Source: a virus (Duplodnaviria > Heunggongvirae > Uroviricota > Caudoviricetes). From it: a DNA stretch of 11,761 nucleotides. The position numbers and the translations under genes are program-made. Below, piece after piece: positions 1 to 11,761 of the stretch (positions are counted from its first letter, which is position 1; every line of letters begins with the position of its first letter). The DNA lies in the IMG/VR virus record IMGVR_UViG_2617271050_000004. The stretch is one strand, 5' to 3'. The notes below the pieces were generated by a model that searched no databases, was not told the DNA's origin, and saw nothing but the letters and a program-made list of their open reading frames with translations.

Positions 1-258
1 ATGCAAACCGTTATTTTTGGTCGTTCGGGTTGCCCTTACTGTGTGCGTGCAAAAGATCTGGCTGAGAAATTGAGCAATGAACGCGATGATTTTCAGTATC
101 AGTATGTAGATATTCGTGCGGAAGGGATCACTAAAGAAGATCTACAACAAAAGGCAGGTAAACCCGTAGAAACCGTGCCGCAGATTTTTGTCGATCAGCA
201 ACATATCGGCGGCTATACCGATTTTGCTGCATGGGTGAAAGAAAATCTGGACGCCTGA
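1..258 (+). CDS. grxA: glutaredoxin 1 (85 aa)
   Basis: Complete ORF from ATG at 1 to TGA at 256-258. The translation carries the CPYC redox motif (GRSGCPYCVRAK) and reads as E. coli glutaredoxin 1 from memory. A hairpin follows immediately downstream. Confidence 0.93.
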   Translation: MQTVIFGRSGCPYCVRAKDLAEKLSNERDDFQYQYVDIRAEGITKEDLQQKAGKPVETVPQIFVDQQHIGGYTDFAAWVKENLDA

Positions 259-267
259 TCGTCTGAC

Positions 268-300
268 AAGCCCTCGCGTTGAGGGCTTTACTGATTTTTT
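268..300. terminator. Candidate bidirectional intrinsic terminator between convergent grxA and ybjM
   Basis: Inverted repeat AAGCCCTC (268-275), loop GCGTT, GAGGGCTT (281-288), followed by a T-rich tract ending TTTTTT (295-300). It sits between the grxA stop (258) and the ybjM stop (288-290). Confidence 0.4.
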
Positions 301-665
301 CTGTGCTGTGGTTTAAACAAACTACTGATAAATAAGAAACACAGTGCCCCCAGCGCACACCAGAACACCGCGCTTAGTAACCATGCCAGCTCTTGCCAGA
401 ATGAGCGCGTCGGTGAAAAAAACAGCCGCATAATGAGCATCGAACAGGGTGCCGCCAGCATTGCGCCAAACAGAGGTTTCAGGACTTCTCTACGCTGTGA
501 AAAGAAGCTGGCGACTGCTCCAGGAAGAATGAAAAATAGCAAGCCGATTTCAGGATGCCCGGCAGCCCGAAAAGCGCCTTTCATGTGCGTCGCCAGAAAA
601 AGGCACACCACAATGAAGAGGACAAAACAGCAGATTGCCCCCGCCCAACGTTGTTTATGTTTCAC
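288..665 (-). CDS. ybjM: small inner-membrane protein YbjM (125 aa)
   Basis: 125-aa minus-strand ORF, strongly hydrophobic with several predicted transmembrane stretches. It is convergent with grxA and divergent from ybjL, as in the E. coli K-12 arrangement recalled from memory. Confidence 0.8.
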   Translation of the reverse strand: MKHKQRWAGAICCFVLFIVVCLFLATHMKGAFRAAGHPEIGLLFFILPGAVASFFSQRREVLKPLFGAMLAAPCSMLIMRLFFSPTRSFWQELAWLLSAVFWCALGALCFLFISSLFKPQHRKNQ

Positions 666-934
666 TCGTTCCTCCTGACACTGCGTCTATCGAACACATT
701 TTTCGCCAGTGTGGCGTTCAGTAAGATAAAGCCGCTTCGCATTCCATGCTAATATAGGCCAACGCAATTCATATAGCCGTTGATACCTAATGTGATTACA
801 CTAGTAAAATATATTGTTACTTTACTATCGTTTAGGTGCGCTGAATGAATCTGCGCCCTGAATTCTGGTAAAAAACATTATCGTAAATTACCATTTCTTT
901 CAACAGCTTACTAGTAAACAAGAAGTTAGCCTCC

Positions 935-2620
935 GTGAATATAAACGTCGCCGAATTGTTAAATGGGAATTACATTCTGTTATTATTTGTGGTCCTCGCG
1001 CTTGGGCTATGTCTCGGAAAGTTACGACTTGGTTCGATCCAACTGGGTAATTCCATTGGCGTTTTAGTCGTATCGCTGTTATTAGGCCAACAACATTTCA
1101 GCATTAACACCGATGCGCTTAATCTTGGCTTTATGCTGTTTATTTTCTGCGTCGGGGTCGAAGCCGGACCGAACTTTTTTTCCATTTTTTTTCGCGATGG
1201 GAAAAATTACCTAATGTTAGCACTGGTGATGGTAGGCAGTGCGCTGGTCATCGCCTTAGGGTTAGGTAAGCTGTTTGGCTGGGATATTGGCCTGACGGCC
1301 GGTATGTTAGCAGGCTCTATGACGTCGACACCGGTTCTGGTCGGTGCTGGCGATACACTGCGTCATTCCGGCATGGAAAGCAGGCAGCTCTCACTGGCAC
1401 TGGATAATCTGAGCCTCGGGTATGCCTTAACCTATTTAATCGGTCTGGTGAGTTTGATTGTTGGTGCGCGTTACTTGCCGAAATTGCAGCATCAGGACTT
1501 ACAGACCAGCGCCCAGCAAATCGCCCGCGAACGTGGCCTGGACACTGATGCCAACCGTAAGGTTTATTTACCGGTGATCCGCGCCTATCGCGTCGGCCCG
1601 GAACTGGTGGCCTGGACCGACGGCAAAAATCTGCGTGAACTGGGTATTTATCGACAAACCGGCTGCTACATTGAACGTATTCGACGTAACGGGATTCTGG
1701 CAAATCCAGACGGTGATGCCGTGCTACAAATGGGCGATGAAATAGCGTTGGTAGGCTATCCCGACGCCCATGCCCGACTCGATCCCAGCTTCCGTAACGG
1801 TAAAGAAGTTTTCGATCGTGACCTTCTCGACATGCGTATCGTCACTGAAGAAGTGGTCGTTAAAAACCATAACGCTGTAGGTAAACGTCTCGCACAACTG
1901 AAGTTGACCGATCACGGTTGCTTCCTTAACCGCGTCATTCGTAGCCAGATTGAGATGCCGATAGATGACAACGTCGTGCTTAACAAAGGTGACGTTTTAC
2001 AAGTCAGCGGCGATGCCCGCCGCGTAAAAACCATCGCCGATCGCATCGGCTTTATCTCGATTCACAGCCAGGTCACTGACCTGCTGGCATTCTGCGCCTT
2101 CTTTGTTATTGGGCTGATGATCGGGATGATCACCTTCCAGTTCAGCACATTCAGTTTCGGCATGGGGAACGCTGCCGGGTTGTTATTCGCCGGAATTATG
2201 CTGGGCTTTATGCGTGCTAACCACCCGACCTTCGGTTACATTCCGCAGGGTGCATTAAGCATGGTGAAAGAGTTCGGCTTGATGGTGTTTATGGCAGGCG
2301 TTGGTCTGAGCGCCGGTAGCGGTATTAATAACGGCCTGGGCGCGATTGGCGGTCAGATGTTGATTGCCGGATTGATTGTCAGTCTGGTGCCCGTGGTTAT
2401 CTGTTTCTTGTTCGGTGCTTATGTATTGCGAATGAACCGCGCGCTGTTGTTCGGCGCAATGATGGGCGCACGTACCTGCGCGCCGGCAATGGAGATCATC
2501 AGTGATACAGCTCGCAGTAACATCCCGGCGCTGGGCTATGCGGGCACCTATGCAATCGCCAACGTCCTGCTGACGCTGGCAGGGACAATCATCGTCATGG
2601 TATGGCCAGGATTAGGATAA
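935..2620 (+). CDS. ybjL: putative AAE-family transporter YbjL (561 aa)
   Basis: 561-aa ORF with a GTG start at 935 (MNINVAELL...). It has hydrophobic N- and C-terminal membrane domains around a central soluble region, the architecture of YbjL/YidE-type aspartate:alanine-exchanger family proteins. Length and sequence match E. coli YbjL from memory. Confidence 0.88.
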
Positions 2621-2731
2621 AACTGAAGTTGCCCTGAAAATGAAATTTTTTTGCACAACCGCAGAACTTTTCCGCAGGGCATCAGTCTTAATTAGTGCCA
2701 CTGCTTTTCTTTGATGTCCCCATTTTGTGGA

Positions 2732-2775
2732 GCCCATCAACCCCGCCATTTCGGTTCAAGGTTGATGGGTTTTTT
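2732..2775 (+). terminator. Candidate rho-independent terminator downstream of ybjL
   Basis: Perfect 10-bp inverted repeat CCCATCAACC (2733-2742) and GGTTGATGGG (2760-2769) with a 17-nt loop that can form a further CCG/CGG sub-stem, followed directly by TTTTTT (2770-2775). Confidence 0.5.
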
Positions 2776-2855
2776 GTTGCCTGAAATTTAAGCTATTTAA
2801 AATCATGATGTTAGAAGCACTATTTTTTAACGATGGCGACAAAATGGCGGCAGCG

Positions 2856-3074
2856 TCAAAGAGAGAGCGCCACCTGTCCTGATTTCATTGGATGCGGCTG
2901 AACCGGATTTGACTCTTTTGGCGTTGCAATCGAACGAACAAAAGTTTCATGGGTAACAAAAGTATGGCTGCAGTTAATGTTCTGGCACTGGTTGTAACGC
3001 TCTTTGGTCAATGAAGATACCTGAAAACTGCTGCGAGTATGGGCGGCACTTCCACACAGTGGGCAAATCATCAT
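2856..3074 (-). CDS. ogr: Ogr/Delta-family zinc-finger late-gene transcription activator (about 72 aa)
   Basis: Translation MICPLCGSAAHTRSS...ERYNQCQNINCSHTF has the C-x2-C...C-x4-C zinc-finger pattern of P2 Ogr. I place the start at ATG 3072-3074 rather than the upstream GTG at 3107, because GGGGAGA lies about 9 nt upstream of that ATG and the resulting length matches Ogr. It is the last gene of the tail block, as in P2. Confidence 0.85.
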   Translation of the reverse strand: MMICPLCGSAAHTRSSFQVSSLTKERYNQCQNINCSHTFVTHETFVRSIATPKESNPVQPHPMKSGQVALSL

Positions 3075-3164
3075 TTTTCGAGTTCTCCCCATTTTTGCTA
3101 AATTCACAATAATGATACCGCATTATTCCATTTTGCAAACTTAAAAGTTCTCCATTGCGAAGAA

Positions 3165-4265
3165 TCATTCCATTTCGAAATCATCAATCCTCACTTCAAG
3201 CTCCAGACTGGTTGTAAAACCGTTATCGGGGCTGACGGTATGCGTCAGAGTCGTAATGGTCCATTCCGCATCATCTATCGGCTGTTTAAAGCCACTGACT
3301 TTCACTGGCATTTCCGTGTAGAGATCTGCCCGACCTTCTGCCAGTAGTAGCGAGAATGACGCAACGCCGCGTTGCAGGCGTTCCCACTGCATTTTCGCCG
3401 CCCGTTCGGCGTTGCTCCGGTTGGCATAAGTGCGATTAAGTACCAGCACGTTTTCATCCGTACCCACCAGGTAATCGCCCTGCTTCGCTTCCGGCTCTTT
3501 CTTCTGCTTCTTAGTCCTGCGCTTACGCTTCACCGTGGTGCTTTCTTTCTTCGCGGGTTCGCGGGTATGCAACCAGCTGGCAATTACGCCCGTGTAGGCT
3601 CCGCGATCTGCCAGGGTAAAGCGGTGACTGTCGCCGTCCTTACGTGTGATAGTGATAACCGGTAGTGGTTTACCGCTGGCGCTTTTACCCTGTCCCTGCC
3701 GGATGAATAACAGATTGCCATTTTTCACCGACGCAATAGCACCGTACTGGCGCGCCAGCCGCATCAGAAAACTGCCGTCACTCTCATTGGTCTGGTCTAT
3801 ATGCTCCACGGGTTTATCCGACAGGTCTTCACCCAATGCCATCTTCAGTTTGTGCCGCGCAGATATTTCCTTCACCACTTCCCCAACGGTGGTCTTGTGC
3901 CACGATTTTTCACGGCGGGTATTCAGCGTTTCACGAAAATCAGCACTTCGCGCCCGGATAGTCAGGCGGTCCGGTGCGCCAGTGTGTTCAATCTCGTCCA
4001 CCGTGAATGCCCCTTTCGGGAAAAGCGGCTGCCCCTTCCACCCCAGCGCCAGCGTAATGACCGCACCACGGCGCGGCAGCACGATTTTTCCGTCGGCGTC
4101 GTCCAGCTCCAGATCAAGCTGGTCCGCTTCAAATCCCCGATTGTCCGTCAGCGTCAGACTCATCAGGCGGTTATCCAGCACAGTAGTGATATCCCTGCCC
4201 TCAATACTGATGCTGAATGCGGGAGTTTTGTTGCCTTTGTTAAGCAGTTCAGAGCTGAAATTCAC
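3165..4265 (-). CDS. D: tail protein D (late control gene D family, 366 aa)
   Basis: Translation recognised as P2 gpD family. Position between U and ogr matches P2 order. The start overlaps the U stop by 4 nt. Confidence 0.88.
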   Translation of the reverse strand: MNFSSELLNKGNKTPAFSISIEGRDITTVLDNRLMSLTLTDNRGFEADQLDLELDDADGKIVLPRRGAVITLALGWKGQPLFPKGAFTVDEIEHTGAPDRLTIRARSADFRETLNTRREKSWHKTTVGEVVKEISARHKLKMALGEDLSDKPVEHIDQTNESDGSFLMRLARQYGAIASVKNGNLLFIRQGQGKSASGKPLPVITITRKDGDSHRFTLADRGAYTGVIASWLHTREPAKKESTTVKRKRRTKKQKKEPEAKQGDYLVGTDENVLVLNRTYANRSNAERAAKMQWERLQRGVASFSLLLAEGRADLYTEMPVKVSGFKQPIDDAEWTITTLTHTVSPDNGFTTSLELEVRIDDFEME

Positions 4266-4747
4266 GACAGCAGCCCTCCCACCGTTTTACTGATATCGCT
4301 TAATGCAGACGTTGCCGTGTCCTGCAGATTATTCAGTTGAGTACTGAGATCACCGAACATATCGGACAGGGATTCATCCACCCGTTTTAGCGAAAGGGTG
4401 AACTCAATCCTGCGCGGCATACCGTCGCGGAAAAACTCCGTTTTAGTCTGATTCAGTCCCTCAATCACATACATGCCGTAAATCGTGCCGCTGCCTTCAA
4501 TCAGGGGCCATGCTTTCCCCTGTTCTGCCATCTGCTCCAGTGCCAGCAACGACAGCCTGCCGCCTGTTATTTCCGGCATAAGAACACCGGAAAGCGTCAG
4601 CATGTCGTTTTCCGGTCCCAGAAACTGCGTGGACGGACGTCGGTTTACCCGACTGTTTGCCGCATGTCGCCAGCTGCGTTGATACTGCAGTTCCTGATAC
4701 GGAACGGTGCGCAGCATAAACACGTACAATCCCAGCACCATCATCAT
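4262..4747 (-). CDS. U: tail protein U (161 aa)
   Basis: Size and position between T and D match P2 gpU. Four-nt overlaps with both neighbours indicate translational coupling. Confidence 0.82.
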   Translation of the reverse strand: MMMVLGLYVFMLRTVPYQELQYQRSWRHAANSRVNRRPSTQFLGPENDMLTLSGVLMPEITGGRLSLLALEQMAEQGKAWPLIEGSGTIYGMYVIEGLNQTKTEFFRDGMPRRIEFTLSLKRVDESLSDMFGDLSTQLNNLQDTATSALSDISKTVGGLLS

Positions 4748-7700
4748 GCGTCGTATCCCCCCTGATCGCTGTAGTTACTCCTGGCTTTTGCCTTCAGCCT
4801 GCGTTCACGTTCATCAAGCTGGCGTGCCACCTCCCGCGCAATATCCTGCGCACTTTGTCCTGGCTGCGTCTGAATGATGATCTGCGTCGGTGCCTCAATC
4901 CGTTGAACGAGCGGCACAGTGGCTGCGCGACTCACAATTGCTTCTCCACCTTTCGCGGGAAGTGCCAAAGGGTGCAATGGTGGAAGCTCTGCTGGCGCGG
5001 CAGCAACGCCCATCATTCCGGCAACAACGGCAGCCAGTGCAGCTGTATTTCTCCGGCTGGTCACATTTGCCGGGCCGTTAACAATTTCCGGCCCGTTTTC
5101 ACCGACGATGCCAAACTGCCCGCGCGGGATATACCCGCCGCTGTCATACATCCCCGCAAAGCCATATCCCCATGATGGAAAACCACCCGATGGCATCATC
5201 ACTTTACCGTCTGCATTCACCGTCGCAGGTTGCTGACGCGTCACGCTTTCCGGCAGTTTTGCCTTTGCGGCCTCTTTACTGACAATGCCGAGCTTCTCCA
5301 GCAACCAGGAAACGCCGGATTTCAGGGAGTCCAGCGGATGCATGACCATATTCAGCCCTTCCGCCAGTGCCTCCCCGAATCGCCGCCCCATTGCCGCTGC
5401 GCTCTGCAGTTCGGCAGAGGTCGACTTAACGGGCGTCAGCAGATCAGTAAACCAGCCCCACAGCGCCTGCACTTTGTCGCCAATCCACTGGAACACGGGC
5501 TTAAGCGGTTCGAACGCTGCACTGATGGGACCTGCCGCCGCTTTGAATCCTTCCACCACGCCACCGAGAAATGCGGTGATGGGTTGCCAGTATTTCCAGA
5601 CAACCAGCGCCACGCCCGCCAGTGCAGTAACCACAAGACCTATCGGACTGAGCAGAGCACCTAACAGACCAGATATGGCATACAGGGCAACGCGCAGCAT
5701 CGCCAGTGGACCAGATGCCAGTACTCGCAGCACCGTGCCTGCGGCGGCCAGTCCACCGCGCAGTACCGCCAGAGGATTCATAAACATCACAGCAACAGCA
5801 CGTAAACCGGATAATCCAGACCGCAAAAGTGCAACCGGCGCACCTGCTACAGTTTTCAGGACATTTCCCGTCAGTGATGCCGTGCGGCGCAAAGACGACA
5901 ACGGCGCAGTAAGTAAACCTGCGGCGTTGCCCGATGAAGCAAGCCCGCGTCGCAGCAGTGCCAGTGGCGCGCCAGCCAGCCAGGACAACGCGCTGCTGGT
6001 TCGAGTTACTGCTGCCGTAACGGAAGATAACGTTTTGATACCCAACACAGAGAATCCCAGACGGATCACTGCTAGCGGCCCCAGCACTGCAGCCAGCGCC
6101 ACCGCTAAGGTGCCGAGGCCGACGGTAACCGCAGCCACAACAGCCGATGCTTTCATCAGTGTGCCTGTCAGTTCCGGGTTAGCTTCCACCCAGCGACGCA
6201 ACGCCCCCGTGACGCTTTTCACCGTGTACAGAATATCCATCAGCGGCTGGCGCAGCGTTTCGCCCAGGCTGCTGAAGGTGTTCTGCGCTCCGGTTTTGAC
6301 CAGCAACCACTGCGCAGAAAGTGAATCCTTGTTAATGTCGGATTCTTTCTGCATGGAGCCGAGCGCATCATTGCCCGCTGTCAGTTTTAACTGACGCTGC
6401 AGTTCCGGCAGGTTGTTTGCCAGTTTCGCCGCGTCATCGCCAAACTCTTTACCAAACAACATAGTCATGGCAGACAGGCGCTTGTCCTGCGGCAGCGCGT
6501 TTACCTTCTCCAGCACGCGCTGGATGGTTCCCATCGCATCCTTCGTCATCTGCTTTTCAATCACTTCAGGATTGAGTTTCAGCAGATTCATCCCTTCAAA
6601 GAAACTCTTGCTTTGCATGGTGGCAATGGACAATTCACGCACCATCGCGTTTGCTGCACTGGCTGCAACCTCTGGCGCAGCGCCCAGTGTCAGGAAGGTG
6701 GAACCCAGCGCCGCCGCTTTACGATAATCCAGACGGTCAGCCACACCGCCCAGACGTTGCATCACATCAATGATGTCTGCCCCTTTCGACATGGCGTTAT
6801 CATCCAGATAGTTCAGCGCATCACCGAGCTGTTCAATATTGCGGGTGGGGATTTTGTAGAGCTGGGCGATTTTCCCCAGACTTTCTGACAGTTCATCCGC
6901 TGGCAGCTCAAAGGCTGTTGCCGCCTTTGCTGCCGTACTGGCGAAGGCCAGCAGGTCACGTTTCTGATCTTCCCAGCTGTCGTCAGGGTTTGCGACGTTC
7001 ATGCGCGCACCACCTTCAACCAGTGCAGCGAAGTCCACCGCACCGTTTTCCATCGGCAACTGTTCGCTGGCAGCCTTGATGGCATCCTGCATTTCATAAA
7101 AACGTGCAGTGCGGTTGCCATTATCGTCACGCAGACCATTGACCTGCTTTGCCACACCTTTCATGGCATCTTCCATGCTGGTATAGCTTTTTACTGCCGC
7201 CATCACTGGCGCACCCATTGCCAGCCCTGCAGCCGTGGTGGTGGCTCCGGCACCTGCAATACGATCACGCACCTCCAGCGAACGGGCATAACTGGCACGC
7301 GCCGCATTCATCCTGCGCTGAGCTTCACCCAGTCGCTTCAGCCGCGCCTCCTGTTTCGAAAGCTCCTGGTTATAACGTGATGTTTCACGGGCTAAACGGG
7401 CAGTTGCTCCTGCATCGTCTTTCGCAGAAATTCCCGCCCGGTACAGTTCAGCACGCACAAGCGCCGTCTGCTGCTGCAGCTTTTTCTGGCGTTCTTCCAG
7501 GCGCTGAACAGCCAGCCGTTGACGGCCCAGAGCAACAACCTGACGTTGCGAAGGCGGCCCCATCGCTCCCAGTTCCTGACTGAGCAAATTTGCACGCTGG
7601 CGGGCATAGTTCAGCCTGTCGCCTAATTTCTGATTTTCTGCCTGCAGCTTTCGGAAGCTGTCCAGACTGCTCCCGGCCTGATCAAGCTGCTTTATTGCAT

Positions 7701-7821
7701 CGCGGGATTTTTTGACAGCAGCAGCCAGTTCTCTTGAACTGGCCTGTGCAGATCGAAATGGGCGGGTGAGCTTGTCAACCGCATTAAGAATGACCTGCAG
7801 ACGCAGGTTGTTATCACTCAT
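4744..7821 (-). CDS. T: tail tape measure protein T (1025 aa)
   Basis: Long ORF with a charged, coiled-coil-like N-terminal third, a hydrophobic Ala/Leu/Gly-rich middle with degenerate short repeats (APLALLRRGL, APVALLRSGL, NPLAVLRGGL, GPLAMLRVAL) and a Gly-rich C-terminus. This is typical tape measure architecture, and the gene lies immediately after E/E' as in P2. Confidence 0.9.
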   Translation of the reverse strand: MSDNNLRLQVILNAVDKLTRPFRSAQASSRELAAAVKKSRDAIKQLDQAGSSLDSFRKLQAENQKLGDRLNYARQRANLLSQELGAMGPPSQRQVVALGRQRLAVQRLEERQKKLQQQTALVRAELYRAGISAKDDAGATARLARETSRYNQELSKQEARLKRLGEAQRRMNAARASYARSLEVRDRIAGAGATTTAAGLAMGAPVMAAVKSYTSMEDAMKGVAKQVNGLRDDNGNRTARFYEMQDAIKAASEQLPMENGAVDFAALVEGGARMNVANPDDSWEDQKRDLLAFASTAAKAATAFELPADELSESLGKIAQLYKIPTRNIEQLGDALNYLDDNAMSKGADIIDVMQRLGGVADRLDYRKAAALGSTFLTLGAAPEVAASAANAMVRELSIATMQSKSFFEGMNLLKLNPEVIEKQMTKDAMGTIQRVLEKVNALPQDKRLSAMTMLFGKEFGDDAAKLANNLPELQRQLKLTAGNDALGSMQKESDINKDSLSAQWLLVKTGAQNTFSSLGETLRQPLMDILYTVKSVTGALRRWVEANPELTGTLMKASAVVAAVTVGLGTLAVALAAVLGPLAVIRLGFSVLGIKTLSSVTAAVTRTSSALSWLAGAPLALLRRGLASSGNAAGLLTAPLSSLRRTASLTGNVLKTVAGAPVALLRSGLSGLRAVAVMFMNPLAVLRGGLAAAGTVLRVLASGPLAMLRVALYAISGLLGALLSPIGLVVTALAGVALVVWKYWQPITAFLGGVVEGFKAAAGPISAAFEPLKPVFQWIGDKVQALWGWFTDLLTPVKSTSAELQSAAAMGRRFGEALAEGLNMVMHPLDSLKSGVSWLLEKLGIVSKEAAKAKLPESVTRQQPATVNADGKVMMPSGGFPSWGYGFAGMYDSGGYIPRGQFGIVGENGPEIVNGPANVTSRRNTAALAAVVAGMMGVAAAPAELPPLHPLALPAKGGEAIVSRAATVPLVQRIEAPTQIIIQTQPGQSAQDIAREVARQLDERERRLKAKARSNYSDQGGYDA

Positions 7822-8250
7822 CGTTGGCCCCGCTTCTCTGAATCGCTTTATACCGCCATTCCAGCACTTCGGTCAGCGGCATAACGTCAGTAACGGATGG
7901 CGGCCAGTGAAAAATGGTGGCGATATCTGCCACCAGATCGTCAACCGTCAGGCTGTCGGCAAACCGGCAAGCACCGACTTCTTCAACAAAAAAGTGACAA
8001 CCTCAACCGACATGGCAGTGAGATCTGCCGGGTCCATCTCTGCAATTTCCTGTGCAGTCAGTGCCGGACTGGAGATGCGGGGGATCACGGTCATCATCGC
8101 GTTTACATCCATATCCATAATGGCCTGCAGGCGTGTACCGCGCAGCGCACCGGACTGCGGTTTACGCAGCACAATTTCGGTGATTTCTGTTTTACCGCGC
8201 TTGATGGGGGTATCCAGTTGAATGGTCTTTTCAGTCTGCTTATCGCTCAT
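7814..8250 (-). CDS. E+E': tail assembly chaperone E+E' (about 145 aa), made by programmed -1 ribosomal frameshift at 7987-7993
   Basis: On the minus strand the zero-frame codons ACT TTT TTG form the heptamer T_TTT_TTG. After a -1 slip the reading frame stays open for 57 codons (VEEVGACRFADSLTVDDLVADIATIFHWPPSVTDVMPLTEVLEWRYKAIQRSGANDE) and ends at TGA 7814-7816, overlapping the T start codon (7819-7821). I translated this by hand from the sequence. Confidence 0.75.
7948..8250 (-). CDS. E: tail assembly chaperone E (100 aa, zero-frame product)
   Basis: Small ORF between FII and T, the position of P2 gene E. It contains the slippery heptamer near its 3' end. Confidence 0.82.
   Translation of the reverse strand: MSDKQTEKTIQLDTPIKRGKTEITEIVLRKPQSGALRGTRLQAIMDMDVNAMMTVIPRISSPALTAQEIAEMDPADLTAMSVEVVTFLLKKSVLAGLPTA
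7987..7993 (-). other. Programmed -1 frameshift slippery heptamer TTTTTTG (plus strand CAAAAAA)
   Basis: Exact X_XXY_YYZ heptamer in the E zero frame. It sits where the E/E' (lambda G/GT-like) frameshift is expected, about 87 codons into E. Confidence 0.75.
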
Positions 8251-8304
8251 TTTGCTGTCCTGTCAATTGGGTTCTGGCGCGGTATCCCGCGCCGTTCAGA
8301 TATA

Positions 8305-8820
8305 TCAGAGGCCGAGGGCGTTGCGGTGCGCTTCCATCAGGTCCACACCGTCCACAATTTCCACCATGTTGATAAGGTCCACTTCATAGAGCACCTCACC
8401 ATTGATGGTCAGCTTCGCGTAGCTGTTGGTACTGGTCACTTTGGTGGTGTTGCTTTCGCCCGTCTTCCACTCGCCGGAATCCACTTCTTTGTGACGTCCA
8501 CGCACGACAAGCTCCACGGCCTGCACTTCCCCGGTATCGTCACGCTGAATAGAGCCGGTAAAGCGCAGCTGGATGCCATCCACCGTGGCTTTACCCATCT
8601 GTTTAAACAGCAGCAATTCAGTACCACCAATGGAAAATTCTGTGTCCAGCGCACTGTCATCAAGCCCCAGGTCCACATCCACCGCACCCGGCATTCCGCC
8701 GCCGCGATACTTCTCATATTTGCGGGTAAATTTCGGCAGCGTCAGCGACTCAACGATCCCCTGCCAGTTGTTCCCGTCGTTAAACAGGTTCAGGTGTTTT
8801 AATTTGCGTGGTAAAGCCAT
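8305..8820 (-). CDS. FII: tail tube protein FII (171 aa)
   Basis: Translation MALPRKLKHLNLFNDG... recognised as P2 FII family. It lies immediately downstream of FI with a 9-nt spacer. Confidence 0.9.
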   Translation of the reverse strand: MALPRKLKHLNLFNDGNNWQGIVESLTLPKFTRKYEKYRGGGMPGAVDVDLGLDDSALDTEFSIGGTELLLFKQMGKATVDGIQLRFTGSIQRDDTGEVQAVELVVRGRHKEVDSGEWKTGESNTTKVTSTNSYAKLTINGEVLYEVDLINMVEIVDGVDLMEAHRNALGL

Positions 8821-8829
8821 GTTGTCCCC

Positions 8830-10002
8830 TTACGCGCTGACCTGGCTGGCGAAATTCACCAGGTACTGATCGGTGATGCGCTGACGCAGCATCAGGTTTT
8901 CAAGTGGCGGCACTGGCGTGTAGTCGTAGTCGATGGTGAGTTTTCCGGCTTTCAGCGTGTCTTTGTCGTTCACCGACTCATCCAGCCAGCAATCACCACC
9001 AATGAGATAGCCCTGACTGACCAGGCTGCGCATTTTGGCGCGGATACCTTCGATAATGTCGCGGGCCAGCGACGGGTTAAGCGGTTTATCCACCGCCCAC
9101 AGGTGTGCTTCTGCCATCGTGTCCATCAGCACCTGCGCCGTGCGGGTGTAGTTTTCGAAGGCAAAGAGCGGGTCATCACTCAGGCAGCGGGAACCCCAGA
9201 AGCGGAAACCGTCTTTACGCACAAGCGTGGTGACGTCGTTCTGGTTCAGCAGACCTGCATCGGTTGCCGGGTCCTGCAGATCCCAGAACACATCTGCAGA
9301 AATTCCGGTGACACCGTTCACGCCCACGTTGGACAGGCTTTTGTGCCATCCGGTCTGCTCGTCAATTTTGGCGCGCAGACCAAGCGCACGGGCGGTGGCA
9401 TATGCCGTTGCTTCGGCATTCAGCACCGTGTCCCAGCCAGTAAAGTCAGGCCAGATCAGCATCCCTTCGCGCTGGCTGAAGTTTTCGCGGTAAGTGATCG
9501 CCTCCTGCACTGTCTTGCAGCCATACGCTGACAGGTAAGCAAATCCACGCAGGCTTTGCGCCACGCTTAGCAACTCAGTAGCTACCGCCTTGGTGTCGTG
9601 GCCTGGCACGCCGAGAATGCGCGGTTTAACGCCGAGCTGTGACTGGGCAGATAACAGGGCTTTCATACCTGTTTTTTTACCTTCAGCAGTCACTGCGCCG
9701 ATGATATTGGTCGTGGTTTCGTCTTCCGTTTCACCCTGCGGCACACGCACAACAATGGTCACGGGTTTTGCCTGGTCAGCGATGGCATCCAGCGAACGGG
9801 CCAGAGTACCTGACTCACCCGCTTTACCGCTGGCAGTCAGCACATCAGTGATCAGCACGGGTTTATTAAGAGGAAACATTTTTGCATCGGCATCATCGCC
9901 CGTGCAGACCATACCCACGATGGCGGTGCTCACCGTGGTAATGGATCGGGTGCCTTCGTTGACTTCAACAACGCGCACCCCGTGGTGGTAATCCTGAGCC
10001 AT
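8830..10002 (-). CDS. FI: contractile tail sheath protein FI (390 aa)
   Basis: Translation [34 protein letters not shown]... is closely similar to P2 FI from memory. A strong RBS (AGGAGG) lies about 9 nt upstream of ATG 10000-10002. Confidence 0.92.
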
Positions 10003-10078
10003 AGTGGCGAACCTCCTGATTGGATTAGGCTTCGCCCTATGTTGAAGTGATTGTGCCTGACAAACAGCTAAGCGCAGT

Positions 10079-10096
10079 TGTACCGTTATTCACACA
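10079..10096 (-). promoter_or_regulatory. Candidate Ogr-dependent P2-type late promoter activator site (TGT-N12-ACA) for the FI operon
   Basis: Palindromic TGT-N12-ACA element centred at 10087/10088, about 85 nt upstream of the FI start codon. This fits an activator site centred near -55 with a roughly 30-nt leader. No good -35 is present, as expected for an activator-dependent promoter. Confidence 0.4.
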
Positions 10097-10144
10097 AAAT
10101 GACGGTATTTGTCTGCTTTCAGGGATAATCAAAATAAAGCTGAT

Positions 10145-10711
10145 TCAGGGAGATTTATTGCTCTTATTTGCCGGAAATTTTCGATAAATGGTAGAAACGC
10201 CTACATCAAAAATCAGTGCAATACGCTGTCTTGATTCTCCGGCCTCGAGTAAACGCCCAATCTGTGCCCACTGTTCGCTGGTCAACTTAGGACGGCGTCC
10301 ACCTACTCTGCCCTTAGCACGAGCTGCAGCCAGCCCCGCCCTGGTACGTTCAACTATCAGTTCGCGTTCCATTTCAGCCAGGGCACCCATGACATGAAAA
10401 AAGAAACGGCCCATTGGGGTGCTGGTATCAATACTGTCAGTCAGGCTTCGGAAATTCACGCCACGCTGGCGCAGCTCTTCTATCAGCGTAACAAGATGCC
10501 GCATACTGCGCCCCAGTCTGTCCAGCTTCCAGACAACCAGCGTGTCTCCTGCCGATAGTGTCCTGAGCAGCTTTTTCAGCCCCGGTCTGTCTGACTTGGT
10601 GCCACTGATTTTATCCTCAAAAATCCGCTCACATCCCGCACAGTTCAGTGCATTGCGTTGCAAATCGGTGTTCTGGTCATTTGTTGACACGCGTACATAG
10701 CCAATAAGCAT
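10145..10711 (-). CDS. serine-recombinase DNA invertase (Gin/Hin/Pin/Cin family, about 188 aa)
   Basis: N-terminus MLIGYVRVSTNDQNTDLQRNAL... with the catalytic serine context VRVSTxxQ, and a C-terminal helix-turn-helix (VGVSTIYRKF). It is near-identical in pattern to the e14 Pin and Mu Gin invertases. I place the start at the second ATG (10709-10711) because GGGGGA lies about 5 nt upstream; the ORF track starts 6 nt earlier. Confidence 0.9.
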   Translation of the reverse strand: MLIGYVRVSTNDQNTDLQRNALNCAGCERIFEDKISGTKSDRPGLKKLLRTLSAGDTLVVWKLDRLGRSMRHLVTLIEELRQRGVNFRSLTDSIDTSTPMGRFFFHVMGALAEMERELIVERTRAGLAAARAKGRVGGRRPKLTSEQWAQIGRLLEAGESRQRIALIFDVGVSTIYRKFPANKSNKSP

Positions 10712-10738
10712 GATCATCCCCCTGAATAAAAACCGGAA

Positions 10739-11290
10739 ATGATGCCAGTTAGCCGTTATCTCTGCATTTTCATAAACGTTGGTTTAGGAGAAGGCTCAGC
10801 ATTGCCTGTTGGCGTACCTGTTCCGTGGCCCTCAGCCACTCCGCCAACAGGCTGGCTAAAATGCAACGGAGCAGCTTTTTCTGCTGAAGAATACCCAGAA
10901 CTGGCAAAGGCTTACCCGACAAATAAATTGCCTGATTTACGTGGTGAGTTTATTCGTGGCTGGGATGACGGACGTGGTATGGATACGGGGAGGGCAATAT
11001 TATCAGCTCAGGGCGATGCCATACGTAATATCTATGGTGAGTTCAAGACTGTAAACACCGAAAATTATTCAATATGGGAATCAGTAGGCTCGTTTAAGGG
11101 GGCAGTGGTGCCTTTGAATCCATCAACGAACAATAGTTATTTCTCCTTAATCAGAAGTATGGTGACTGAAAGAACAGATGGCGCTGTTTACCCAAAAGTG
11201 ATTGGCCTTGATGCTTCAAGAATTGTTCCAACTGCAAACGAAAACCGTCCTCGTAACATTGCCTTTAATTATATCGTGAGAGCTGCCTGA
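10739..11290 (+). CDS. tail-fibre C-terminal variable cassette (alternative, currently unfused orientation)
   Basis: The ORF starts in or at the crossover site and reads into the segment. The translation (GVPVPWPSATPPTGWLKCNGAAFSAEEYPELAKAYPTNKLPDLRGEFIRGWDDGRGMD...) resembles the receptor-binding C-terminal part of phage tail fibres (Mu S/S', P1 S, P2 H). There is no convincing RBS and no N-terminal constant part on this strand. Its stop overlaps the start of the downstream assembly gene (TGATG). Confidence 0.7.
   Translation: MMPVSRYLCIFINVGLGEGSALPVGVPVPWPSATPPTGWLKCNGAAFSAEEYPELAKAYPTNKLPDLRGEFIRGWDDGRGMDTGRAILSAQGDAIRNIYGEFKTVNTENYSIWESVGSFKGAVVPLNPSTNNSYFSLIRSMVTERTDGAVYPKVIGLDASRIVPTANENRPRNIAFNYIVRAA
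10767..10792. promoter_or_regulatory. Candidate 26-bp invertase crossover site (gix/hix-like) bounding the invertible tail-fibre segment
   Basis: TTTTCATAAACG-TT-GGTTTAGGAGAA: two imperfect 12-bp inverted half-sites around a 2-bp core, with the AAAC..GGTTT centre typical of gix/hix sites (about 9 of 12 matches per half-site to TTATCAAAAACC as recalled). It lies 56 bp from the invertase start, inside the 5' end of the tail-fibre cassette ORF. Confidence 0.45.
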
Positions 11291-11554
11291 TGAATAAAGC
11301 CGTATTAAATAACGAACTCATTGCCATAAAAGCGGGAGACATTACCATTTATAATTATGATGGTGAAACGCGGGAATATATTTCCACATCAACTGAATAT
11401 CTTGCGGTTGGCGTCGGTATCCCGGCATGTTCTTGTTTAGATGCACCAGTTACACATAAAGCTGGTTATGCAATCTGCCGATCTGCAGATTTTAACTCAT
11501 GGGAATGTGTGCCAGACCATCGCGGTGAAATCGTCTTTAGCACCGAAACAGGAN
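11290..11554 (+). CDS. tail-fibre assembly protein (Tfa/U'-like), N-terminal part, truncated by the assembly gap
   Basis: Translation MNKAVLNNELIAIKAGDITIYNYDGETREYI... has the look of Tfa N-terminal domains and is start/stop-coupled to the preceding tail-fibre cassette. The ORF runs into the N-run at 11555. Confidence 0.65.
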
Positions 11555-11564
11555 NNNNNNNNNG
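11555..11564. other. Assembly gap (10 N)
   Basis: A run of ten n characters. Coding frames on the two sides are incompatible, so the true gap is larger than 10 bp or the join is artificial. Confidence 0.95.
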
Positions 11565-11761
11565 GCGTTAAGTCGGGTTGTTTCTGCCTGCGTCAGTTTA
11601 CGTGCGGCCTGCAATTTCAGCTGAATCAGACTGATGGAAGCCATTGCAGCATCAATCAGTGACTGACGCTGTGCTTCTGCCGCGTCTACTGCGGCATTAT
11701 GCTGTGCCTCAGTATCTGTCACCCATTTCTCACCATCCCATTTATCGTATGGCGTTAACGG
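11565..11761 (-). CDS. tail-fibre assembly protein (Tfa/U-like), C-proximal fragment; N-terminus lies beyond the window end, C-terminus is lost in the gap
   Basis: The minus-strand frame is open from the window edge: PLTPYDKWDGEKWVTDTEAQHNAAVDAAEAQRQSLIDAAMASISLIQLKLQAARKLTQAETTRLNA. This matches the conserved C-terminal region of lambda/e14-type Tfa proteins from memory. It is convergent with the plus-strand tfa, as in Mu G or P1 C invertible segments. Confidence 0.65.

Follow-up and report, generated by a model that had tools for sequence, protein, structure and literature searches.

The right end of the 11,761-nucleotide stretch of DNA analysed here (the window) very probably represents the invertase-proximal half of an invertible tail-fibre segment of the Pin/Gin type, carried by a P2-like (Peduoviridae) prophage next to ybjL in E. 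coli, in which a 198-bp piece of tfa sequence behind an assembly gap has most likely been placed in the wrong orientation. The right edge of the window falls within the invertible segment, so that gene H, the partner crossover site and the expressed cassette lie outside it. The features that were located are compiled in Table 1.

Table 1. Features at the right end of the window, with the evidence for each
Feature	Position	Strand	Evidence
P2 FI-type tail sheath gene	8830..10002	-	Pfam Phage_sheath_1, Phage_sheath_1C, Gp18_domIII_N; relatives annotate phage tail sheath protein
DNA invertase, Pin/Gin/Hin/Cin group, 188 aa	10145..10711	-	Resolvase + HTH_7 (Pfam), PinE/Gin identity, PDB Gin
Candidate recombinational (Fis) enhancer, 5' end of invertase gene	10627..10690	-	Weak motif matches, one of them at a position shared with pin and gin
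26-bp crossover site, pix equivalent, TTTTCATAAACG-TT-GGTTTAGGAGAA	10767..10792	+	e14 site likeness; breakpoints of the sister-strain inversions
Silent StfE-like cassette with Collar domain, alternative C-terminus of tail-fibre gene H	10793..11290	+	Pfam, StfE identity, in-frame junction in relatives
TfaE-type tail-fibre assembly chaperone of the silent cassette, codons 1-88	11290..11553	+	TfaE identity; gene severed by assembly gap
Run of 10 N, scaffold join	11554..11563	.	Sequence
198-bp piece encoding TfaE-type residues 108-172	11564..11761	-	Caudo_TAP 9e-12; 95% identity to TfaE

The switch lies in a P2-like tail module

Pfam analysis of the minus strand revealed, in this order, Ogr_Delta, Phage_GPD, GpU, a tape-measure domain, TAC_7, Phage_tube and sheath domains, which is the P2-type gene order ogr, D, U, T, E/E', FII, FI, followed by the fibre genes. 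The FI sheath gene sets the switch between H/G and FI of this module. Up to the gap, complete E. coli relatives match the window at 99.4-99.9% identity, among them LD26-1 with 99.87% over 7551 bp. In LD26-1 the order is invertase (-), crossover site, cassette (+), tfa of 200 aa (+), tfa of 139 aa (-), H of 469 aa (-) and then I, J, W and V. Complete relatives thus have gene H where the initial annotation, from the P2 order, had placed its constant part, on the minus strand to the right.

The invertase, its crossover site and a candidate enhancer

The mechanically called invertase ORF extends from 10145 to 10717 on the minus strand, and the start annotated in relatives, 10711 (MLIGYVRVS..., 188 aa), is likely the true one. 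The product was correctly recognized at the outset as a Pin/Gin-like serine invertase, and its protein features are those of the enhancer-dependent invertases: the N-terminal catalytic domain (Resolvase, 2.4e-53) of this small serine recombinase carries the catalytic Ser9 within MLIGYVRVSTNDQ, a helix-turn-helix (HTH_7, 5.8e-16) forms the C-terminal part, and characterised members are close in sequence. It is 86.7% identical to PinE of e14 and 74.6% identical to Mu Gin. The closest solved structures are those of Mu Gin (3UJ3/4M6F), which align over residues 1-184 without indels (E=6e-93), whereas the match to the gamma-delta resolvase structure is weaker (2e-34).

The gix/hix-like 26-bp site reported in the initial annotation, TTTTCATAAACGTTGGTTTAGGAGAA, is imperfectly palindromic, adjoins the invertase gene at a distance of 56 bp from its start and has a single match in the window; in 200 shuffles, matches with up to three mismatches numbered 0. 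It differs by 1 base from the e14 site adjoining pinE and shows the half-site pattern of Mu gix. Its outer half points toward the invertase and its inner half opens the cassette.

In relatives, an inverted partner site, TTCTCCCAAACC-AA-GGTATGTGAGAA, was found within minus-strand H, in a codon phase equal to that of the site in the window and with its central dinucleotide in the opposite orientation, ~1.87 kb to the right (in the nearest relative, the site centres are ~1868 bp apart). This agrees with the earlier proposal that an inverted copy should lie within a few kb to the right and that the second site and the expressed cassette are outside the window. Since 5 of the 26 positions are not shared between the sites, the partner escaped an inverted-repeat search in a relative and came to light on inspection of the sequence and in a scan with a degenerate pattern. 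Each of the 12 related loci retrieved with the cassette possesses the TT/AA pair, with the sites ~1.6-2.7 kb apart (site-pair scan of L001, L004, L006 and L008-L015, with L002 left out). For the genome analysed here, the partner would be expected ~1.87 kb from 10767, that is ~0.9 kb past the window end, and should resemble TTCTCCCAAACCAAGGTATGTGAGAA.

The 5' part of the invertase gene contains a putative recombinational enhancer, with G-N13-C 15-mers at gene nucleotides 22-36 and 71-85. The two are ~49 bp apart, and their distances from the crossover-site centre are ~97 and 146 bp. The 15-mer at 71-85 fits GNNYRNNWNNYRNNC and occupies an equal gene position in the window, in e14 pin and in Mu gin; the one at 22-36 does not fit the stricter Fis consensus, and the motif matches are altogether weak and suggestive only. 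The first 60 nucleotides of the gene are 92% identical to pin and 82% identical to gin. In the Hin system the enhancer is situated ~100 bp from hix, and in the Gin system it is inside gin (PMC3798978), and an enhancer role for this region is presumed from such similarities.

Both orientations occur in sister strains

Near-identical sister strains carry the two orientations of the segment with exact exchange of half-sites. LD26-1 has the orientation of the window and LD22-1 the flipped one; between these two strains, as between DG341-1 and DG342-2, exactly the segment between the sites is inverted, and the flanks of the DG pair are 100% identical. The breakpoints fall inside the crossover site, with the half-sites swapped at the central TT, and the hybrid sites in the sister strains are reciprocal half-site swaps. 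Counting records with at least 80% query coverage, the junction in the window's orientation was present in 122 records and the predicted flipped junction in 210 records from 208 genomes.

These observations concern relatives, and the fibre region is hypervariable among prophages sharing an identical tape-measure protein, the invertase being absent or split into two ORFs in some of them; an intact partner is therefore not to be assumed. The switch in this genome could accordingly be a locked remnant whose partner site or constant H has been lost or rearranged, with inversion no longer taking place. Decayed or replaced fibre regions are indeed found in prophages with an identical tape-measure protein, namely a split invertase in L021, none in L026, an acyltransferase together with an IS in L027 and a shortened segment in L030, and hybrid or rearranged junctions are found in L007 and L011. 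However, the crossover site in the window is intact and so is the invertase ORF, which retains Ser9 and aligns to Gin over its full length, and the nearest relatives have kept the complete system in both orientations. We thus regard a locked remnant as distinctly unlikely, and infer from the relatives that this genome, too, should carry an intact partner site.

The rightward cassette is the silent one

The mechanically called cassette ORF runs from 10739 to 11290 on the plus strand and begins with an 18-codon leader that spans the crossover site. The initial annotation had described a rightward tail-fibre cassette followed by tfa and had taken the cassette to be silent, and both points were borne out. 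The cassette contains a Collar domain (Pfam, 8e-16) and is 57-58% identical to e14 StfE, and the tfa gene starting at 11290 is 85% identical to TfaE over residues 1-88. The cassette lacks a promoter (the scan gave 2 sites in the region against 2.3 expected), and the whole promoter and terminator scan of 9950-11553 gave hits at chance level only. In the flipped state of the relatives the constant part of H is fused in frame to this cassette, giving a protein of 519 aa that is annotated in LD22-1 as an intact fibre. This supports the assignment of the plus-strand StfE-like cassette and the TfaE-type chaperone as the silent set in the orientation of the window.

As the ORF of 183 codons at 10739-11290 starts with an ATG of its own and its leader resembles the one of e14 stfE (MMPVSRYLCIFINVGLGEG vs MPFACYFFIFINVGLGEG), it might instead be expressed alone in lysogens and act in receptor blocking or against phages in the manner of the e14 Stf chimeras; products of the e14 P segment after inversion are reported to block T2 adsorption (PMC12529663, 2025). 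We consider this highly unlikely, since the upstream region contains no promoter-like site above the expected number, the divergent invertase start is just 27 nt away from the ORF, stfE of K-12 carries a pseudogene annotation, PADLOC matched none of the three proteins tried (invertase, cassette ORF and YbjL), and the e14 result was obtained with a cryptic prophage and a different chimera. There is a very slim chance that the leader-plus-cassette ORF and its inversion partner would yield small Stf-type proteins in lysogens which block the receptors of other phages. If this were true, an intact P2-like prophage would have a fibre switch that also serves in host defence, as was recently claimed for the cryptic e14. 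Our preferred reading is still that of a silent cassette, used only after inversion.

Probably a single tfa gene, severed by the assembly gap

The initial annotation had proposed a second tfa gene reading leftward from beyond the window end. This was not upheld: the sequence after the 10-N gap encodes residues 108-172 of the same TfaE-type gene whose first 88 codons precede the gap, so that only one tfa gene is supported within the window and two convergent ones are not. In relatives, the TfaE-type gene is intact and encodes 200 aa, and the 198-bp piece corresponds to the portion of the plus-strand tfa missing after the gap, less 19 codons. In 22 of 22 related loci that have the gene, the 198-bp sequence is found 57 bp beyond the position of the gap and on the strand of the N-terminal part, and reversal of the piece, together with a 57-bp bridge taken from a relative, restores an open gene of 200 codons. 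Because the relatives with the gene all place this stretch 57 bp downstream on the same strand, the minus-strand piece is most likely a misoriented scaffold fragment of the plus-strand tfa and not a second gene. The true converging chaperone in relatives is TfaP-like, is 131-147 aa long and lies outside the window.

The tfa allele of the window departs from that of LD26-1 from 11481 on, with 7 mismatches in the last 73 nt before the gap and 7 in the 198 nt after it; the sequence further to the right may therefore also differ from LD26-1. No genome with this exact allele was found, E. coli sequences matching the last 114 nt and the 198-bp piece being at best 98% identical, and an exact 30-mer from the contig end had no match in the genome contigs. 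The misorientation is for this reason not provable by an identical contiguous copy.

The scaffold orientation as given could conversely be taken at face value, with the 198-bp piece belonging to a genuine second TfaE-type gene that converges on the first, the inverted repeat formed by the C-terminal halves having broken the assembly. Convergent chaperone genes do occur in invertible segments, collapsed repeats are plausible as TfaE-type C-terminal DNA is present in up to 7 copies per E. coli genome, and the identity of the piece to complete genomes reaches only 96.5-98%, so that its origin cannot be fixed by identity. We nevertheless judge such a second gene to be unlikely. In all 22 loci the piece maps only to the gene of the N-terminal part and never to the converging gene, which in the invertase-bearing relatives is TfaP-like or a short ORF without any DNA match. 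Furthermore, the two pieces are complementary and non-overlapping parts of one protein, and the divergence from LD26-1 that rises before the gap and continues after it fits a single mosaic allele. A third crossover site nested in tfa was also considered as the cause of the flipped piece and was ruled out, as no site with up to five mismatches to the consensus was found inside tfa in any relative scanned. A misoriented fragment of one tfa gene thus remains the preferred explanation.

Comparison with known inversion systems

Judged by sequence, the closest relative of the switch is the P segment (Pin) of e14. The initial annotation had likened the locus to the Mu G segment and the P1 C segment; the layout does match that of Mu, but neither Mu nor P1 is the nearest system. 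In the e14 P segment of E. coli K-12 (stfP-tfaP / tfaE-stfE / pinE) the order and orientations of the genes equal those found here, the invertase is 87% identical, the site is 1 base off, StfE is 57% identical to the silent cassette and TfaE is 85-95% identical to its chaperone. The segments are also of comparable size, 1797 bp in e14 (PMC12529663) against the ~1868 bp between site centres in the nearest relative of the window. In contrast, e14 is lambdoid and defective and its fibre gene is truncated, while the switch described here lies between H and FI in an apparently complete P2-like tail module, and the expressed cassette of the relatives is only ~30-33% identical to e14 StfP.

Inversion has been shown experimentally in e14 and in P2-like prophages of EPEC (PMC4272514; PMC12529663), in the latter by sequencing (PMC4272514). 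The P2-like loci of EPEC E2348/69, for which phase variation was demonstrated, and phage Cartapus share the P2-type tail order and have the invertase between the fibre genes and FI, as here, although one EPEC locus contains three repeats and four variants whereas the relatives analysed here have two sites. Cartapus, an isolated phage of the Peduoviridae, is 96.6% identical to the window from the end of FI to the site; the homology stops exactly at the site, and the cassettes differ.

The Mu G segment has the same topology, with a constant S, Sv-U facing U'-S'v and gin pointing outward from the segment, an invertase gene starting ~55-70 bp from the boundary, a 26-bp site with a similar half-site pattern and a 75% identical Gin. 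It differs in its size of ~3 kb, in the GA/TC core of gix compared with AA/TT here, and in belonging to another phage family. The suggested comparison with the Mu S and S' cassettes gave no similarity; BLASTP returned nothing at E<0.01 when the cassettes and chaperones were compared with Mu S, S'v, U and U'. Salmonella Hin/hix shares the invertase group and the type of 26-bp site, but Hin flips a promoter and thereby changes the flagellin that is expressed, whereas the present switch would exchange the 3' end of a structural gene. One related locus, L011, carries a hybrid site composed of a prophage half and a hix-like half beside a flagellin gene and a second invertase gene of the resolvase family; prophage and hix-like sites can therefore recombine together.

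Implications for annotation and proposed mode of action

Tail-fibre inversion of the Pin/Gin type has been known since the 1980s, and a switch of the present kind is already known and ordinary. The locus is of little discovery value, given that inversion in P2-like prophages was already shown and that hundreds of E. coli genomes carry annotated copies that are nearly identical. Its practical bearing is on annotation and assembly: the cassette ORF should not be named as a separate 'phage tail protein', and two tfa genes should not be called here. Short-read assemblies are routinely broken or scrambled by invertible segments and by the repeated 3' halves of tfa, and gene order across N gaps at such loci is therefore not to be taken as biology.

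In the mechanism that we propose, dimers of the invertase would bind the crossover site and its inverted partner within H, presumably assisted by Fis on an enhancer early in the invertase gene, cut both sites at the central 2 bp, rotate and religate them, and so invert the segment. Two cassette-plus-chaperone sets would face each other, and the late tail operon would express only the set fused in frame to the constant N-terminal part of H. Inversion may then give rise to particles with another receptor-binding tip and, in consequence, another host range.

Organization of the window

P2-type late and tail genes (ogr, D, U, tape measure T, E, FII and FI) occupy the minus strand, and the switch region lies directly upstream of FI in the direction of the phage genes. 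At its other end the prophage adjoins chromosomal genes (window 1-3107); with ogr as the outermost phage gene there, the attachment junction is expected in 2621-2855.

Features of the window with their coordinates
Feature	Position	Strand	Remarks
Glutaredoxin gene	1-258		E. coli chromosomal gene, left end of window
ybjM	288-665	minus	E. coli chromosomal gene
YbjL-type transporter gene	935-2620		E. coli chromosomal gene
ogr	2856-3107	minus	Last phage gene at prophage end
Sheath gene FI	8830-10002	minus	P2-type tail module
Serine recombinase ORF	10145-10717	minus	Resolvase 2.4e-53, HTH_7 5.8e-16
26-bp crossover site TTTTCATAAACGTTGGTTTAGGAGAA	10767-10792		Exactly 56 bp from 10711
Ten N	11554-11563		Scaffold join inside tfa gene

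Invertase, crossover site and silent cassette

The Pin/Gin-like serine invertase and the gix/hix-like site next to its start, both proposed in the initial annotation, were borne out. In relatives the invertase start is annotated at 10711, giving a product of 188 aa that is 86.7% identical to PinE of the E. coli K-12 element e14 and 74.6% identical to Mu Gin. Gin crystal-structure sequences matched residues 1-184 without gaps (E=6e-93), the match to gamma-delta resolvase being much weaker (2e-34), and the catalytic serine is held in the stretch MLIGYVRVSTNDQ. The 26-bp site is single-copy in the window, found no match in 200 shuffles even with up to three mismatches, and differs by one base from the site flanking the e14 P segment beside pinE. 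As judged from their sequences, the invertase is intact and the site a bona fide crossover site.

The rightward tail-fibre cassette and tfa (tail-fibre assembly chaperone gene) were likewise recovered: the open frame from the site to 11290 carries a phage tail Collar domain (8e-16) and shares 57% identity with e14 StfE, and the tfa starting at 11290 shares 85% identity with TfaE residues 1-88. The cassette is an alternative 3' end for the fibre gene H, in frame with it, lacking a promoter and with its own chaperone gene attached. In RefSeq relatives the silent cassette has its own annotation, as a 183-aa 'phage tail protein' whose ATG precedes the crossover site by 28 nt; the leader of this ORF (18 codons; window 10739-10792) is similar to that of e14 stfE, a pseudogene in the K-12 annotation.

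Partner site in related prophages

Gene H had been placed on the minus strand beyond the window from the P2 order, and this is where it was found in E. coli LD26-1 (99.87% identity over 7.5 kb) and in AST262, also close. Both read invertase (-), site, Collar cassette (+), tfa of 200 aa (+), tfa of 139 aa (-), H of 469 aa (-), I, J, W and V, as in P2 except for the invertible segment inserted between H and FI. The inverted second site sought in a minus-strand fibre gene to the right was present within H of relatives, as TTCTCCCAAACC-AA-GGTATGTGAGAA in one of them (L001, 8633-8658). Read on one and the same strand, the central dinucleotide is AA in this site and TT in the invertase-proximal one, and hence their orientations are opposite. 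The two sites share a codon phase, site position 1 being the second codon base, and encode ...LTYLGLGE and ...FINVGLGE. The TT/AA pair was present in all 12 related loci fetched by cassette, at a spacing of 1.6-2.7 kb. Since the LD26-1 segment measures 1868 bp from centre to centre, the partner site of the window would be expected ∼0.9 kb past its end.

A tape-measure protein identical to that of the window is indexed in 2798 blocks of the collection. Loci sharing it (L021-L030) have the same prophage backbone, in most at the ybjL-side position, and a very variable fibre region: L021 has the invertase divided between two ORFs, L026 lacks it, L027 carries an acyltransferase gene and an IS in its place, and L030 has another integration neighbourhood, on the smpB side.

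A probable flipped scaffold piece in tfa

A second tfa reading leftward from the window end, as initially proposed, did not hold. The 198 bases after the N gap encode a minus-strand Caudo_TAP fragment whose product corresponds to TfaE residues 108-172 (95% identity), that is, the continuation of the plus-strand tfa less 19 codons. When aligned with LD26-1, the window up to 11553 covers locus positions 1-7551 and the 198-bp piece falls at 7806-7609, in the same gene, 57 bp further on and reversed. This placement recurred in every related locus carrying the TfaE-type gene (L001-L015, L018, L019, L021, L024, L025, L026 and L028), and in none of these did the piece match the converging gene. Reversing the piece and bridging it with 57 bp from a relative restored an open 200-codon TfaE-type gene. 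Furthermore, the window and LD26-1 differ at 10 positions over 7551 bp, seven of them within the 73 bp that precede the gap (11481-11553), and the piece itself differs from LD26-1 at 7 of 198 positions; such a distribution is as expected from a single mosaic allele that spans the gap. Based on the placement in relatives, the restored gene and the mismatch pattern, the 'second tfa' is very probably a misoriented scaffold piece, even though genome searches found no genome with an identical copy of the window's exact tfa allele to prove it. The mosaic boundary in tfa coincides with the contig break. Two scaffold-level loci of the same prophage, L022 (1688-3517) and L029 (1474-3528), have N runs over essentially the whole invertible segment, indicating that the invertible locus systematically breaks short-read assemblies.

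Inversion in near-identical prophages

A predicted flipped junction was composed of 700 nt of constant H up to the site centre, the window cassette and the tfa start. It is open in frame, yielding a 519-aa fibre, and 210 records from 208 genomes matched 80% or more of it, the window-orientation junction being found in 122 records. The best flipped match (99.2%) was strain LD22-1, which shares its source with LD26-1 and has the 519-aa fibre annotated as one gene. The flanks of LD26-1 and LD22-1 are 99.97-99.98% identical, and the sole inverted stretch (6765-8646) has alignment boundaries that overlap inside both 26-bp sites. DG341-1 and DG342-2, with equal record lengths and 100% identical flanks, show the same inversion difference. 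The hybrid sites, for instance TTCTCACATACC-TT-GGTTTAGGAGAA and TTCTCCCAAACC-AA-CGTTTATGAAAA in LD22-1, have exchanged their halves reciprocally and exactly at the central dinucleotide, as a serine invertase would leave them after cutting mid-site with a 2-bp stagger. Genome comparison thus showed that the segment inverts in near-identical prophages.

Two further loci were unusual. In a draft contig (L007, CXZX01000009.1, 2332-5922), the segment is bordered by two copies of the invertase and three crossover sites. The Collar cassette is present there both fused to H and as a silent copy, representing either a duplication or misassembly of a mixed-orientation culture. In a 4.76 Mb chromosome (L011, CP044257.1), the right-hand site (5914-5939) is a hybrid, TTCTCCCAAACC-AA-GGTTTTTGATAA, whose outer half presumably resembles the Salmonella hixL half-site, and it adjoins a second resolvase-family (hin-like) invertase gene, a flagellin gene and an fljA-type repressor gene. 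This suggests that the prophage fibre site recombined with a flagellar hix site, probably as a large chromosomal inversion.

Relationship to known systems and proposed mechanism

The closest relative is the e14 P segment (stfP, tfaP, tfaE, stfE, pinE), with the same order and orientations; the site, invertase, StfE-type cassette and TfaE-type chaperone of the window are all e14-related. The topology is also that of the Mu G segment, but the suggested comparison of the window cassettes with those of the Mu G segment detected no similarity. The same module occurs in the isolated phage Cartapus (Peduoviridae), which is homologous to the window precisely as far as the crossover site and has another cassette after it. 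In EPEC, fibre loci of P2-like prophages have been shown to phase-vary (PMC4272514). The initial interpretation is right and the switch system already known; the N gap with the flipped tfa piece is the only substantive correction.

By analogy with Hin/Gin (PMC3798978), invertase dimers on the two sites would synapse at a Fis-bound enhancer, and subunit rotation would swap the half-sites. As in gin, the invertase gene probably contains the enhancer near its 5' end. One 15-mer of this gene, at nt 71-85, fits the Fis consensus and has its counterpart at the same position in pin and gin; another, of the form G-N13-C, occupies nt 22-36. With centres ∼146 and ∼97 bp, respectively, from that of the site, the two are suggestive as a candidate Fis enhancer. 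As in Mu, P1 and related systems, and as stated for prophage fibre switches (PMC4272514), inversion would alter host range.
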